The position numbers were made by a program, and so were the translations under genes. A DNA stretch of 63,345 nt, counting the filler. It is 5 parts of 5 records of this genome, joined end to end, with 100 filler letters (N's around TTAATTAATTAA, not from the genome) between each part and the next. Parts side by side here need not be neighbours in the genome. Positions count along the whole stretch, not along the records: positions 49,176 to 54,904 come from SRR22947727_5398; 4 more parts are not named here. One strand, given 5' to 3'. Below, in pieces: positions 31,656 to 55,004 of this stretch (the stretch's first letter is position 1; each line of letters begins with the position of its first letter). The notes under the pieces were generated by a model. That model saw only the letters and a program-made list of their open reading frames with translations, had not been told where the DNA came from and made no database searches.

Positions 31656-31755
31656 NNNNNNNNNNNNNNNNNNNNNNNNNNNNNNNNNNNNNNNNNNNNT
31701 TAATTAATTAANNNNNNNNNNNNNNNNNNNNNNNNNNNNNNNNNNNNNNNNNNNN
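31656..31755. other. Artificial contig spacer
   Basis: 100 nt of N flanking TTAATTAATTAA; abrupt GC change across it. Confidence 0.99.
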
Positions 31756-37852: not shown

Positions 37853-37952
37853 NNNNNNNNNNNNNNNNNNNNNNNNNNNNNNNNNNNNNNNNNNNNTTAA
37901 TTAATTAANNNNNNNNNNNNNNNNNNNNNNNNNNNNNNNNNNNNNNNNNNNN
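37853..37952. other. Artificial contig spacer
   Basis: N-run with TTAATTAATTAA. Confidence 0.99.
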
Positions 37953-49075: not shown

Positions 49076-49175
49076 NNNNNNNNNNNNNNNNNNNNNNNNN
49101 NNNNNNNNNNNNNNNNNNNTTAATTAATTAANNNNNNNNNNNNNNNNNNNNNNNNNNNNNNNNNNNNNNNNNNNN
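49076..49175. other. Artificial contig spacer
   Basis: N-run with TTAATTAATTAA. Confidence 0.99.
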
Positions 49176-49205
49176 AACGATTTCGCAAGCCATGCCATCC
49201 TCTAG
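49176..49205. repeat. 30-nt inverted copy of 54875-54904 (efp sequence) at the contig start
   Basis: AACGATTTCGCAAGCCATGCCATCCTCTAG is the exact reverse complement of the contig's last 30 nt. Confidence 0.95.
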
Positions 49206-51356
49206 TTTTTTAAAGTCAATTGATAATATATCGCTACATTGATCAAGAAACTCTAAAAATAGATTAATATTTTCTATATCTTGCGTATCAATCATAGATT
49301 TATCACCTCTTAATTGTCGCCAAACACTTTCGACAAAATATCTATGTGCAACTCTACTGCGGTATTCGATATTATTTTTAATTACGTTAATAAAATTATT
49401 TAATCTACTTAAGCTATTCTTGTTAAGCTTAATTTTTATATCCTCATGATTGATGATTTCCCAGACTGATGATTTGTGATCCTTTTCGAATAATATGACC
49501 AAGTCTTCTAATTTTAAGCCGCACCATGGAGCTTTTAGAGTGGCAATCCATTCAGTTCTGTTACTGAAATTATACAAAGCCTTAGTTAGAGAAAAAATAT
49601 CTTGAAATGTTTGATTAGATAAAATTTTTGACATTTCAATTGCATCTACAGGCAGTGTTGTATTTTGCTTATTAATAAGAGTAAGAAGTTCATTGAGATG
49701 AGCTCTTGATCTAGTTAAGACAGCAATTGATGAATTTGGATTTGAATCTCTTATGCTATTAATTAAATTTAAAACATATAAGGCCTCAGCGTCATATAAT
49801 TGTGTTTTATTTTCAACATCGCAAACAAGTGGTGTTAATTCAACCCCACCTTCTTGAATGTTATTACTTGATTCACAGTGAGAGAAGAGGATTGATCCTT
49901 CTTCGTTAATATTTAATACAGGAAATGATTTTGAATAGCTATAGTTAATCCAGTCGATAATACTTTTATTTGACCTAAAATTAACTTTTAGGAAAAGTGA
50001 TTTTAGTTTTAAATCACCAATACCATTTTTTTGAACTCTATTAAAAATTTCAACTTCAGCTTTTCTAAATCGATAAATTGATTGCATGGGGTCACCAACT
50101 GCAAAAAAAGATTTTTTATTATTACCTGCAAAGTTTTCAGTAAGCAATTCTAGAAAATTAAGTTGGGATTCATTGGTGTCTTGAAATTCATCCACCATTA
50201 TATGTGAAATATTTTGATCTAGAATTAGGGGTAGATTCGTACTTCTAAGAGCCTCAACAGCGTTACCCATGACTTGAGTAAAATCAACAATTCGTTGCGA
50301 GTTAAATTTCTCATTTAATCTGGTTACCATATCCACCAGCATCAAGCAAAAAGAAGATATGATTGGTATAATATCTTGGAGATTTTTAGGATAAACTACA
50401 TTATAAAAATCTTTTATATAATTGATTTCTATTTTATTTTTATTTATTAATTTAAATAATTTCTCTTTATTTTCTTTCCCTTCATTCCCAGGAAAACCAT
50501 TTTTTTTATTAAATTCTTTACGTAAGTCTTTACCATTTTTTGTTAGTATAAGGTCTCTAAAATAGAACCAAAACTCATAGTTTTTTGATGACCTTATTGT
50601 GTCTTTATGGCTTATATTTTTGTTGTCAGCAACAAAGTTTATTATCGATTCTAATTCTTCAATCTCTTCCATTGTAAAAATGGGTTTAATTTTTTTATTT
50701 ATCCATTTCTCTAATTCTTTTGAATAATATGTATCGTAATTCGCCTTTGCATTATTTGCAGATTTTAATAATGCACTTACCGTTGGTAACCATTGATCTC
50801 TTTTACTTATTAATGTCAATAATTGCTCGGTTAATTTATGAAAATCATAATTAAAGAATCTTATTAATTCATGATTATCCGCGATGGCAGTTATGGTTTC
50901 CTTTATTGTTTCTCGATATAGTTCTTCAGGATCTTCATCTATCAAAAAATTTACACCTGACTTGCTAAGTATAGGAGTTTGTTTCACTAATCTTAGTGCC
51001 AACTTATCAATGGTCATTATCATCAGAGAGTCTATATAACTTTCCTCCCACTTATTATTGAGGGCGTGCTTGGATAGCTTTTCTTTAATTTTTTTTATTT
51101 CGTTGTCTTCGCTTTGGCCCTCAAGGGCATCCTTAATCCTCTGGGCCATCTCTGCAGCAGCCTTATTTGTAAATGTAAGCGCAAGTACTTCTTTAGGTGA
51201 TTTGACTTTAAGGAGAAGGCTTAGGAATCTTTTAACTAACAATGATGTTTTTCCAGATCCTGCAGGTGCTTGGACAATAAACGACCCCATTCCCAGAGCT
51301 TCCTCTCTGTACTTATAATCAGATGGTTTTTTTGATATTTCAGCCATATAGCTCAA
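49176..51356 (-). CDS. addA: AddA-like UvrD/SF1 helicase-nuclease, 3' truncated
   Basis: 'QAPAGSGKT', 'LTFTNKAA', 'VDEFQD', 'GDPMQSIYRFR', 'NFRS'; paired with an AddB-like gene. Confidence 0.82.
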
Positions 51357-53985
51357 ATTGATGTTTTTTTTCAGCCAATCTCAGAAGTGATAAAACATCG
51401 CAGTAAGTAAAATCTATTCTTTCTTCAAATTTTACAGAAGCATCACCTGATAAATAATGTTCAGCAATTGCTTCAATTCTTTCTTTCCATACTTTTATAA
51501 GCATGTCCCAGTCAGTAATATTTGAGTTATCAATTTTGGAGTTAAGTTGCTTTGCAATGGAATTAGAATCATTTGCTAGGATTCCGTATAAGTTTATTTT
51601 ATCTCGATTAATGTGACCTATTGCAATGCCTGAGAGATCCTTAATTGGAATAAAACAAGCGTAAATTGGCAATTGGAGGTCTTCAAGACTGTCAGAAAAT
51701 AATTCTTTTCTAGATGTTGGGTTTTTTGCTGTTTTATAGTCAATAAGTAATTTATTTTTTTTATTAATAAAATCTATTCGATCGATACGAATATTAAATT
51801 TAAGCTTACGTATCTTTATTTCATAAGATTTTTCAAGCGCATGTATAGAAAATTTAGGTCGAGTTTTTTCTTCTTTTAGCCAACTATAAATCAAGCTCTT
51901 TAAAAAATTTTGTTCCATCGATAACAGTCGGCTATCCAGTTCATTATGCTCAAGTTCAAATTCACTCAAGGCTTCAGATATTGCTATCTCTAGATTGTTT
52001 GAGAGTTCACCATCACCATAAGATAGTAATTGATCCGATGTTTTACAATTTCTCCAAAACAATTCTAAAATTCTATGGACTAGTGTTCCCTCTGACCTTC
52101 TAGTGATCTCATATTGTTCATCTTCTTCGTATCTAGAGCAACCTAGCCTGTTCGCATAAAAAGCCCAAGCAGGGCATTTATTTTGGTTTTCAATAGTTTT
52201 GCATCCACTCTTAATTATTAATTCATTACTCACCTTTATGGCAGGAGCTTGATGGTCAGTAACATAACACTGGTTTTCTTCAACTAGTGATCTTGATTGG
52301 TTTTCAAACAGTCGATGAATATTAATTTTTTCTTTATTCCAAGGCGAGGGGGATAGAGAAATGTCATTGTCCCTTAATGAAAATGAAATCGATAGTTCTT
52401 TTGATAATTTTGATAGTCTAGCTACTTTATCTTGATAAAATTGTTTGTGATAGGAAGCGTTAAATAAATTATTTTTTTCTTGTATTTTTTTTGATAAAAA
52501 TGGATTGTATTCCTCCAGATTTGGCCAAAAATTATCGTTCATATTCATTAACCATATAGCATCATATTCTCTTGTTGGGTTTTCATAAAACCCATAAATA
52601 TCGATGGTAGAGTCTTCATTGATTTGATTCGGTACAAAATTTTCTAAATAATATTCTAAGTAACTTACATATTCAGAAAGTGATAGTTTATTAGGCGTAA
52701 TTTTGCTATTACTTAATTGATTAATTACTTTAAATAAAAGTTTTATATTATTGTTTTCAAATGATAAAATATTATTTATTTTTCCAAAATTTATTATTTC
52801 TAGAAAACTATATATTAACTTATTCCAAGATGATGCTTTATTATGTTTTGGCCATTTATTTTGATTATTTTGTATAATTTTGAAAATATTTTCGAGTTTC
52901 TGAAAATTATGTTTTTGGTCTGTCGATTTTTTATTTCTTAACAGCATTTGTAAATTTACTAACGATATATAGTTTTTTTTTGTTTCCTTTAGTGCATTTG
53001 CAAAATGTTGTTTGCTTTCATAACTAGCACTTGAAACCCAATTATCAAACAACAATAATTCGTTTAGTTCTTTTACGGATAAAAGTTTATTTTCATTAAT
53101 CTTAATGCATATTATTGCAGCTCTTATAATGGGTTCTGCTGATAATGGTCTTTTAAGACTTGTATTTAATATGCTTTTGGACTGTATATCAGAAAAAATA
53201 TTTGGTTGTATACTTCTGTCTATCTTATTTTGTAGGTTAACTTGAAATTTTTCTAATGCTGGTGACATTATTAGCAATTTATTTTTATTTTTTGACTTAT
53301 TTTTATTAATCCACTCAACAACTGCTGAAATTTCGTGATCATAATTTTGAAATGCATGAACTTTGGGTATAGATTTAAATTTTTCTGCTTCTAAGTCATT
53401 TGAGACTTCATTATTTTTTTGTAATGCTTCAAATAGGTTTTTGTGGCTAGGTTTGCTTTTATCGAGGCTTACAAACAATATATTTTCATTTTCTATAATA
53501 GTTTTTTCTTTTTGCAGCGAAGTAAAGACGTTTAAAAAATCATATTTTGTTATAAGCTGGTTTTTTGAACACTCCTTCTGAAACTCTTTCCTCCATTCAA
53601 GAAAGTACTTTGGCTCTTTGTAGGCTATATGCTTTTGTAACTCATTATGATGAATATGATAGTTTGAAATTATCCTATTAGCATTAATCACCTGTTGAGC
53701 AATATTTGTGATATCGGTTATTTTTTTTTCTTGACGTTTTCTTAAATCATCTCTGATAATTTTTTCCCATAAAATCTTTTCTTCAATCCCATTTAGTATT
53801 AAAAATTCATTCGCTGCTTCTCTCATTAGAAAATCTTGATATTCATTTGCAATCCAATTATCTAGCGTTTGGATTTTAGGAATCTTTAAAACATTATTAT
53901 TTGATTGTTTTTTATAGGTAAGCCGAATATCATTCACTTGAATTTGATTTTCACAGACTACGGCGGTGTATGGTTTATGATTCAT
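51340..53985 (-). CDS. addB: AddB-like inactive helicase with C-terminal PD-(D/E)XK nuclease
   Basis: 'CPAWAFY', 'GTLVH', 'RIDRID...LLIDYKT', 'QLPIY'. Confidence 0.8.
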   Translation of the reverse strand: MNHKPYTAVVCENQIQVNDIRLTYKKQSNNNVLKIPKIQTLDNWIANEYQDFLMREAANEFLILNGIEEKILWEKIIRDDLRKRQEKKITDITNIAQQVINANRIISNYHIHHNELQKHIAYKEPKYFLEWRKEFQKECSKNQLITKYDFLNVFTSLQKEKTIIENENILFVSLDKSKPSHKNLFEALQKNNEVSNDLEAEKFKSIPKVHAFQNYDHEISAVVEWINKNKSKNKNKLLIMSPALEKFQVNLQNKIDRSIQPNIFSDIQSKSILNTSLKRPLSAEPIIRAAIICIKINENKLLSVKELNELLLFDNWVSSASYESKQHFANALKETKKNYISLVNLQMLLRNKKSTDQKHNFQKLENIFKIIQNNQNKWPKHNKASSWNKLIYSFLEIINFGKINNILSFENNNIKLLFKVINQLSNSKITPNKLSLSEYVSYLEYYLENFVPNQINEDSTIDIYGFYENPTREYDAIWLMNMNDNFWPNLEEYNPFLSKKIQEKNNLFNASYHKQFYQDKVARLSKLSKELSISFSLRDNDISLSPSPWNKEKINIHRLFENQSRSLVEENQCYVTDHQAPAIKVSNELIIKSGCKTIENQNKCPAWAFYANRLGCSRYEEDEQYEITRRSEGTLVHRILELFWRNCKTSDQLLSYGDGELSNNLEIAISEALSEFELEHNELDSRLLSMEQNFLKSLIYSWLKEEKTRPKFSIHALEKSYEIKIRKLKFNIRIDRIDFINKKNKLLIDYKTAKNPTSRKELFSDSLEDLQLPIYACFIPIKDLSGIAIGHINRDKINLYGILANDSNSIAKQLNSKIDNSNITDWDMLIKVWKERIEAIAEHYLSGDASVKFEERIDFTYCDVLSLLRLAEKKHQFELYG

Positions 53986-54033
53986 CTTCTAGAATTTTAA
54001 CTCAAATCATAGTAAAAAAATTTTCAGAACCAA

Positions 54034-54513
54034 ATGACAAAAAGTAATAATTACATCACTTCAGAGGGTTATAAAAAACTCCAAACAGAGCTTTTAGAGT
54101 TAATCAAGCATGATCGTCCTAAAATTGTTGAGATAGTCTCCTGGGCAGCTGGAAATGGAGATAGAAGTGAAAATGGAGATTATATTTATGGGAAAAAAAA
54201 ATTAAGACAAATTGACGGTAGGATTAGGTTTTTAACAAAAATCATTGAAGCCTCTAATATTATTCATCCTAGTGAGAAAATAGATAAAACTAAAATTTTT
54301 TTTGGTGCATTAATTGAATTGTTTCAAGAGGAAAGTAACAAAACGCTGAAATTAAGAATTGTTGGTCAGCATGAGACTAGTCATGAAGATCATTATATAA
54401 GCTGGATCTCTCCACTTGGAAAGGCACTCTTAGGGAGAAAAAAAAGAGAAACAATTGATGTGAATATTGATGGGATAAATACAGCCTATACAATTATTAA
54501 TATTGATTATTAA
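54034..54513 (+). CDS. greB: Transcription elongation factor GreB
   Basis: 'VSWAAGNGDRSENGDYIYGKK.LRQID.RIRFL', 'ISWISPLGKAL'. Confidence 0.95.
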   Translation: MTKSNNYITSEGYKKLQTELLELIKHDRPKIVEIVSWAAGNGDRSENGDYIYGKKKLRQIDGRIRFLTKIIEASNIIHPSEKIDKTKIFFGALIELFQEESNKTLKLRIVGQHETSHEDHYISWISPLGKALLGRKKRETIDVNIDGINTAYTIINIDY

Positions 54514-54553
54514 AAAGGTATAATCACAAAAAATTTAATTCCGAGGAAGTGAA

Positions 54554-54904
54554 ATGAAAACGGCACAAGAAGTCAGAGTAGGAAATGTAATTATTGTTGA
54601 TGGAGATCCAATGGTGGTTCTCAAGTCAGAATATAATATTTCAAAGTCAGGCCGAAGACAGAATGCAGCTATTGTCAAAATGAAAATGAAGAATTTATTG
54701 ACTGACAATGCAGCTGAAAAGATTTATCAAGCAACGGATAAATTTGATCTGGTTATCTTAGAAAAAAAAGACGTAACATACTCCTATTTTTCTGATCCAA
54801 ATTATATATTTATGGATTCAGATTTTAATCAATATGAAATTGATCAAGATGCAATGGAGAGCACTTTAAAATTCCTAGAGGATGGCATGGCTTGCGAAAT
54901 CGTT
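54554..54904 (+). CDS. efp: Elongation factor P, Arg-type lineage with extended loop; 3' truncated
   Basis: 'MKTAQE.R.GNV', 'KMKMKNLLT', 'TYSYF.DP.Y.FMD..FNQYE'; GAGGA SD and TATAAT at 54519. Confidence 0.96.
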
Positions 54905-55004
54905 NNNNNNNNNNNNNNNNNNNNNNNNNNNNNNNNNNNNNNNNNNNNTTAATTAATTAANNNNNNNNNNNNNNNNNNNNNNNNNNNNNNNNNNNNNNNN
55001 NNNN
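54905..55004. other. Artificial contig spacer
   Basis: N-run with TTAATTAATTAA. Confidence 0.99.

Follow-up and report, generated by a model that had tools for sequence, protein, structure and literature searches.

The beta3-omega-beta4 loop of canonical elongation factor P (EF-P) is seven residues long (Volkwein et al., 2019, PMC6544042). Arginine-type EF-Ps of the EarP class need rhamnosylation of R32 in this loop by EarP, and are described as working poorly when they are not rhamnosylated (PMC12931083). Each EF-P subtype is regarded as bound to its own modification system (PMC12931083); how a lineage might escape such a dependency is an open question, and the locus described here bears on the exit route. 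EfpL (YeiP) has a loop that is two residues longer than the canonical one, its R33 was found by mass spectrometry to be unmodified, and docking showed that the loop reaches the CCA end (Sieber et al., 2024, PMC11611912). The same paper proposes that loop length replaces modification, reports that all 528 Arg-tip sequences with a loop of more than seven residues, from 4736 RefSeq genomes, form the EfpL branch, and speculates that EfpL came first, that the loop shrank next and that EarP was recruited last (PMC11611912).

Arginine-type EF-Ps without EarP of D. radiodurans, of G. ferrihydriticus and of N. communis complement E. coli efp knockouts in the unmodified state (BMC Biol 2026, PMC12931083). 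That study counts 206 Arg-type EF-Ps from 14 phyla without a known modification system, and states that genomic data cannot separate an unmodified EF-P from one modified via an unknown pathway; such pathways are openly considered there and by Brewer et al. (2024, PMC11388002). In the PGKGP-type EF-P of Actinobacteria (6S8Z), which is also unmodified, activity is encoded in the loop sequence (PMC12856214, 10.1101/2023.09.18.558224). The gene analyzed here evidently encodes the sole EF-P of a clade of marine OM43-type Methylophilaceae, and its sequence indicates descent from an Arg-type EF-P that needs rhamnosylation of R32 by EarP.

The stretch of DNA that we analyzed (the window, positions 1-63345, 63,345 nucleotides) consists of five contigs, with joints at 31656-31755, 37853-37952, 49076-49175 and 54905-55004. 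Each joint is composed of 44 N, TTAATTAATTAA and 44 N, an arrangement found four times in the window where 0.03 would be expected by chance; TTAATTAATTAA is a six-frame stop linker. The GC content of the five pieces alternates between 52-54% and 28-31%. The window must therefore have been strung together from the contigs of more than one organism, two at the least and probably three. The contig carrying efp (49176-54904, 29.6% GC) aligns collinearly from end to end with the complete genome G002 (73.6% identity at the nucleotide level), and the sole match of the other pieces to G002 was 235 bases at 67%, from the first piece. We rejected another genome, G001, as kin of the efp contig: it is related to the 52-54% GC contigs only, its EF-P is 32% identical, and its missing EarP is thus uninformative on the efp gene of the window. 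The joint at 54905..55004 cuts efp after codon 117, so that the region downstream of the gene is not visible, and the DNA beyond it belongs to another contig from another organism; genes past 55005 are therefore not neighbors of efp.

Upstream of efp, the contig carries a PD-(D/E)XK DNA-repair protein on the minus strand (51340..53985, TIGR03623), which is the conserved left neighbor of greB-(earP)-efp and occupies the same position in loci L005 and L017. This is followed on the plus strand by a greB-like transcript cleavage factor of 159 aa (54034..54513; NF002506, 183.4 bits against a cut-off of 188) and by a spacer of 40 nt (54514..54553, plus strand), the site of earP in relatives. The first-pass annotation had named greB as the upstream gene and had given the same distance. 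It had also assigned efp its own TATAAT and Shine-Dalgarno sequence. Both sequences are present, with GAGG at 54543-54546, 7 nt ahead of the efp ATG, and TTAATA-16-TATAAT at 54497-54524 matching the promoter consensus at 10 of 12 positions. However, promoter-like sites, the one ahead of efp included, were not more frequent than chance allows in such AT-rich DNA (6 vs 3.2 ± 2.3 in shuffled sequences). A single DNA contig spanning the whole stretch (run X6) lacks one base of greB at 54382; either greB may be frameshifted in that strain, or the contig may be in error.

The efp fragment in the window (54554..54904, plus strand) comprises the first 117 codons, which take in the KOW domain and the greater part of OB domain 1, and matches the Pfam models EFP_N (PF08207, 2.7e-15) and EF-P OB domain (PF01132, 5.9e-13). 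Its product is 98-99% identical to the full-length 190-aa proteins P0003 and P0004, and P0004 contains all three Pfam domains (PF08207, PF01132, PF09285) and scores 194.7 bits with TIGR00038, above the cut-off of 185.8. These matches assign the product of the window gene to the elongation factor P family, TIGR00038. Translation of the ORF from 54554 places the loop region, E26 to K42, at 54629..54679 on the plus strand, exactly as first read. Alignment with MAFFT and HMMER, the latter against P. aeruginosa EF-P (3OYY/6J7M), bore out the presence of two extra residues on either side of KSGR: I29-S30 (ATT TCA, 54638..54643, plus strand) on the N-terminal side, and R35-Q36 (AGA CAG, 54656..54661, plus strand) on the C-terminal side. 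In the HMMER alignment the P. aeruginosa sequence carries two 2-residue gaps, EFN--KSGR--NAAVVK, and MAFFT gave the same result with standard-loop relatives. R34 (CGA, 54653..54655, plus strand) aligns by HMMER with R32 of the EarP-type EF-P and K34 of E. coli EF-P. The loop of the window EF-P is thus 11 residues long; it contains I-S-K-S-G-R-R-Q, with G33-R34-R35 at its center.

We then compared this protein with the described systems. The proposed relation to the EarP type was upheld by sequence: P. aeruginosa EF-P (3OYY) is the best solved match of the full-length protein (E 8e-68), and the TIGR00038 model is passed while the EfpL model is not. The K-S-G-R core, the flanks E-Y/F-N and N-A-A-V/I-V-K-M-K, and the greB/efp/tldD neighborhood are common to the OM43-type EF-P and to the EarP type, the neighborhood being that of EarP-bearing Methylophilaceae. 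In contrast to the EarP type, the OM43-type loop has 11 residues and not seven, R35 stands at the apex in place of N33, and EarP is missing from 20 of 20 extended-loop genomes. EfpL (8S8U) shares with the OM43-type protein an Arg-tipped loop of more than seven residues and the lack of a known modifier, and its longer loop and unmodified R33 (PMC11611912) do provide the precedent that had been invoked for function without modification. An assignment to EfpL/YeiP itself was rejected, since P0004 scored 111.3 bits with TIGR02178 against a required 264 and 122.9 with NF003392 against 216. EfpL is only a distant solved match (2e-20), and its extension is of two residues (a 9-residue loop) whereas that of the OM43 type is of four (an 11-residue loop). 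Three residues before the Arg, EfpL has a strictly conserved Pro (PMC11611912) where the OM43 type has K31. Further, EfpL is a paralogue found beside an EpmA-type EF-P, unlike the OM43-type protein, which is the sole EF-P and arose inside the EarP type.

The unmodified Arg-type EF-Ps described in PMC12931083 resemble the OM43 type in their Arg tip and the lack of a co-occurring EarP, and the loop of G. ferrihydriticus is also extended; however, these were not derived from the EarP type within a genus, and two of them are second copies. The PGKGP type has a Lys tip on a 7-residue loop stiffened by two prolines, with no change in length; its solved match to the OM43 type is only 4.9e-26, and the P-G-K-G-P motif is not present in the OM43-type loop. 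In agreement with the view that this EF-P type is new, no published description of an extended-loop, EarP-less EF-P was found in the literature searched, which included the 2026 reviews PMC12856214 and PMC13602936 in part; the loop table of the 206 proteins of PMC12931083 lay outside the search and may include OM43-like sequences. That search also yielded no paper joining EarP or EF-P with OM43, Methylophilaceae, Methylopumilus or HTCC2181, and the main text of the paper on streamlining in the Methylophilaceae contains no mention of an elongation factor, efp, rhamnos- or translation (PMC6794327).

The insertion had also been thought to keep the register of the hairpin and to push its tip outward, and this was not borne out by structure prediction. 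In the AlphaFold2 model of P0004 (103 aligned sequences, mean pLDDT 86), strands were predicted at residues 18-27 and 40-47, and residues 28-39 were modeled as coil with a pLDDT of about 59. In contrast, the standard-loop control P0069 was predicted as a tight hairpin, with strands at 18-30 and 34-43 and a three-residue turn at about 83. A symmetric 2+2 insertion would fit a hairpin lengthened by two pairs, or roughly 6-7 Å, although the AlphaFold2 model is without such a hairpin.

A protein search returned 3255 proteins at E up to 0.001, and we considered the best 120 of these. An identical loop 15-mer was present in 65 of these best 120 matches, preceded by V in 40, I in 23 and L in one, so that S at position 30 together with I, V or L at position 29 was seen in 64 of the 65 extended matches; the remaining one, P0052, differs from them in its N-terminal part as far as F-SKSGRRQ. 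The other 55 of the best 120, at 65-68% identity, had the standard E-Y/F-N/S-KSGR-N/S. Some extended-type entries differ in length outside the loop: P0053-P0060 and P0063 (193 aa) have an extra MYEM or MFEM ahead of MKTAQE, and P0017, P0027, P0030-P0033 and others are 192 aa long, with two more residues in total. These entries, which lie outside the loop finding, probably reflect alternative start calls and small C-terminal differences.

The extended loop was found in 20 species genomes. Contigs from all four sequencing runs, of four studies (two DNA and two RNA libraries), covered the loop with zero indels, and their four substitutions within it (54649, 54658, 54667 and 54676) were all synonymous and at third positions; the presence of the insertion in relatives and in sequencing runs was thereby confirmed. 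Contigs from the RNA (metatranscriptomic) libraries indicate the presence of efp and are not a proof of its transcription. When 19 distinct genes of 190 aa were compared across residues 26-43, variation was seen at 17 of 18 codons but in only one residue (position 29, I/V), as compared with 75 of 190 positions over the whole EF-P. R35 and Q36 were invariant as amino acids in these genes, with three and two synonymous codons, respectively. This pattern indicates that the loop is under purifying selection.

In a scan of species genomes, 14 loci carried the 570-nt form of efp, under the names Methylophilaceae bacterium and OM43 beta proteobacterium, and one of them lies on a complete chromosome of 1,359,251 bp. 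EarP (PF10093) was found in none of five extended-loop genomes and in five of five standard-loop controls (E about 1e-145), and tblastn of the complete genome G002 with two EarP proteins gave a best E of 0.4. We then extended the comparison to the genus of G002, where 37 of the 42 genomes have efp, and the remaining five, all small assemblies, have neither efp nor earP. The 570-nt efp with the motif inside the gene was present in 20 genomes of the genus, with an EarP match in 0 of 20, while all 17 genomes with a standard loop (efp of 555-558 nt) encode EarP directly upstream of efp. The genome-wide absence of earP that had been expected to accompany this loop is therefore seen in every extended-loop genome of the genus. 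Across the family, EarP was detected in 315 of 361 genomes. The 46 without it comprise the 20 of the extended clade, 24 with no efp in the assembly and two with efp fragments only; outside the genus, 19 of 21 EarP-less genomes have no efp, and the other two have only C-terminal fragments at contig starts. An intact standard-loop efp without EarP was not found among the 361 family genomes. The loop search in these genomes used a back-translated DNA pattern, which matched 26, and six of the matches were spurious: G155 and G300 have their own efp elsewhere, and in G108, G192, G247 and G307 the codons matched by WSN do not encode serine.

Comparison of gene order located the loss of earP precisely. 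At the standard-loop locus L017, a TIGR03623 nuclease on the minus strand is followed by GreB (224.8 bits), EarP (TIGR03837, 477.9 bits) and efp. Sisters with small genomes have greB, an EarP of 322-338 aa and efp, followed by a minus-strand ORF of 480-490 aa where the extended clade has tldD. In the extended clade the order is nuclease, greB, efp and tldD, and the window is alike up to the point where efp is cut. Synteny thus indicates a change from greB-earP-efp-tldD to greB-efp-tldD, with earP excised cleanly; the deletion falls exactly between greB and efp, in agreement with the earlier remark that earP is not upstream of this gene, and no new gene was found in place of earP beside efp in the extended clade. 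The EarP of the standard-loop sisters is itself short and divergent, at 322-338 aa, with 171.5 bits for TIGR03837 against a cut-off of 347 and Pfam E values of 1e-25 to 1e-76, some of them in two stretches. These shrunken EarP genes (loci L087-L091, e.g. L090:2097-3062, minus strand; genomes G012-G020, G024-G026, G035-G037, G043 and G046) keep the D-N-Y-G-D and R-G-E-D motifs, which line up with catalytic residues D13, D17 and E273 in the P. putida enzyme. EarP was thus already under reduction in this lineage before its loss.

A tree was built from 71 rows, namely 70 locus sequences distinct in DNA and the window fragment, with the four insert columns dropped; 31 loci without a parsed efp and 17 nucleotide duplicates were left out. 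All 20 extended rows formed one clade (support 100/98), requiring one change on the tree. The clade is nested among EarP-bearing Methylophilaceae, and the standard-loop members of the same genus are paraphyletic around it. The topology points to a single origin of the extended loop, and, together with the names of the relatives, it places the window efp in OM43-like Methylophilaceae, so that the host proposed in the first-pass annotation, an OM43-like betaproteobacterium, can be retained. An intermediate state, with loop gain and no loss of earP or the converse, was not seen among the genomes compared. The path indicated for the OM43 clade is opposite to the order on which Sieber et al. speculated.

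Each of the 20 extended-loop genomes has one gene of the EF-P family, with no second EF-P or paralogue. In the five extended genomes searched for other modifiers, there was no match to EpmA over the cut-off, the matches being ORFs of the size of aminoacyl-tRNA synthetases, and no match to EpmB. RmlC (PF00908) was considered as a proxy for a lost rhamnose supply and rejected, as its presence in 9 of 20 extended-loop genomes vs 6 of 17 EarP-bearing standard-loop genomes does not discriminate between them. PF00908 is absent from 11 of the 17 genomes of the genus that retain EarP, and the dTDP-rhamnose epimerase of those genomes, if any, is therefore not of the PF00908 type; alternative RmlC homologues reportedly occur in P. 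putida (PMC8184846). One RmlC match, in G016, contains an in-frame TAA.

The polyproline load was compared between one pair of complete genomes, G002 (extended loop) and G012 (standard loop with EarP), with no outgroup, using 1147 reciprocal-best orthologues of 58% median identity. There were 364 PP motifs in G002 vs 342 in G012, of which 227 were shared, 137 occurred in G002 only and 115 in G012 only; for PPP, nine were shared, three occurred in G002 only and five in G012 only. Proline content was 3.61% vs 3.57%. Neither PP nor PPP is depleted in the extended-clade member of this pair, and the polyproline load of these two genomes would give no sign of a failure of EF-P. Counts of CCNCCNCCN were dropped as a measure of polyproline and replaced by this orthologue comparison, since the pattern takes no account of reading frame and the control used for it was the identical pattern.

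Taken together, these results suggest a path by which EarP may have become dispensable. The ancestor had an Arg-type EF-P that depended on EarP for the rhamnosylation of R32. Along the branch leading to the clade, the beta3-omega-beta4 loop grew from seven to 11 residues, with I-S added before and R-Q after K-S-G-R and G33-R34-R35 at the apex, and on the same branch earP was deleted between greB and efp. The longer loop may then supply the reach that rhamnose, or beta-lysine in the case of E. coli, otherwise gives, in the manner proposed for EfpL with a loop two residues longer. We infer that the OM43-type EF-P is unmodified and active, length compensating for the sugar. By analogy with EfpL, we consider it probable that this EarP-derived EF-P works without rhamnosylation and that its 11-residue, G-R-R-tipped loop supplies the reach.

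Other explanations were weighed against this one. An artefact of assembly or sequencing could be suspected in a record that concatenates contigs of several organisms and has efp at a contig end, yet the same loop in 65 of the best 120 database matches, in 20 genomes and in four runs of four studies, with no indels, refutes this reading and leaves it a negligible chance. Small genomes and the loss of earP might also suggest that EF-P is degenerating along with a genome that has been reduced, and that the insertion is a lesion tolerated in a less important factor. This is very improbable: conservation within the protein is highest in the loop (one of 18 residues varies, as against 75 of 190 in the full protein, and 17 of the 18 codons show synonymous change), 20 species have an intact efp, contigs from RNA libraries cover it, and PP and PPP motifs are not depleted. 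A functional reading of another kind is that the insertion retunes the spectrum of arrest motifs, or fits a changed ribosome or tRNA-Pro, and that the loss of earP was a separate streamlining event, tolerated through the partial activity of an unmodified Arg-type EF-P. Motif preference does differ among EF-P subtypes (PMC12931083; for EfpL, PMC12856214), and the node coincides with the marine branch of this family, whose genomes are known to have been streamlined in steps (PMC6794327). However, EarP status goes with loop type without exception in 37 of 37 genomes, every standard-loop genome having EarP, EarP-type EF-Ps perform poorly when unrhamnosylated (PMC12931083), and the polyproline load is unchanged between G002 and G012, which makes this account rather improbable.

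The extended loop could, alternatively, still receive a modification, from an enzyme that is not related to EarP, EpmA/B or YmfI and for which the new geometry is the recognition element, and not a substitute for modifying the loop. The number of Arg-type EF-Ps without a known system (206, in 14 phyla; PMC12931083) and the consideration given to unknown pathways (PMC11388002) speak for it, as do the 127 G002 ORFs of 150 aa or longer for which G012 has no counterpart. RmlC is kept in 9 of the 20 extended genomes, and the dTDP-rhamnose donor may therefore be available to another transferase. We regard such a modification as unlikely, since no new gene adjoins efp, its neighbors being those of the relatives minus earP, and the closest analogue, EfpL, is unmodified (PMC11611912). 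In addition, the genomes are streamlined, at about 1.1-1.4 Mb, so that the gain of a pathway in exchange for one that takes a single gene is not parsimonious.

A second lineage of EF-P, 43% identical, also has a loop that is four residues longer, with G33-R34-R35 and the Gly at the same distance from E26. By sequence comparison it includes P0156, P0272-P0279, L256:8001-8570 and L257:8001-8570; nine metagenome proteins read E-F-H-K-S-T-[AS]-G-R-R-A-S, and two contigs with a GC content of 28-31%, one of which measures 2.1 Mb, read H-Q-S-T-S-G-K-R-Q-R. EarP was not found within 8 kb of the second-lineage efp, the span to which the search was limited. This lineage possibly represents a convergent solution. 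Beyond the account of the OM43 protein itself, a broader reading can be offered only tentatively: that this is a natural switch within a genus from a modification-dependent to a modification-independent EF-P, that a four-residue extension with a G-R-R apex is sufficient to make the rhamnosyltransferase dispensable, that at least one further AT-rich lineage came independently to the same solution, and that the substitution of encoded loop length for EF-P modification is a general and transferable rule.

Both states are present in one genus, a standard loop with a shrunken EarP that keeps its catalytic motifs and an 11-residue loop with no EarP, and the two differ by a defined four-residue change. 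If loop length does replace the sugar, the clade would provide an independent case for the idea derived from EfpL, running opposite to the order of Sieber et al., and the extension would amount to a minimal design for a modification-free Arg-type EF-P. If the loop is instead modified by an unknown enzyme, these genomes would hold a new EF-P modification pathway. OM43-type bacteria are among the most abundant coastal methylotrophs, and the replacement of EarP by loop length, if true, would be a translation-factor example of genome streamlining in them.
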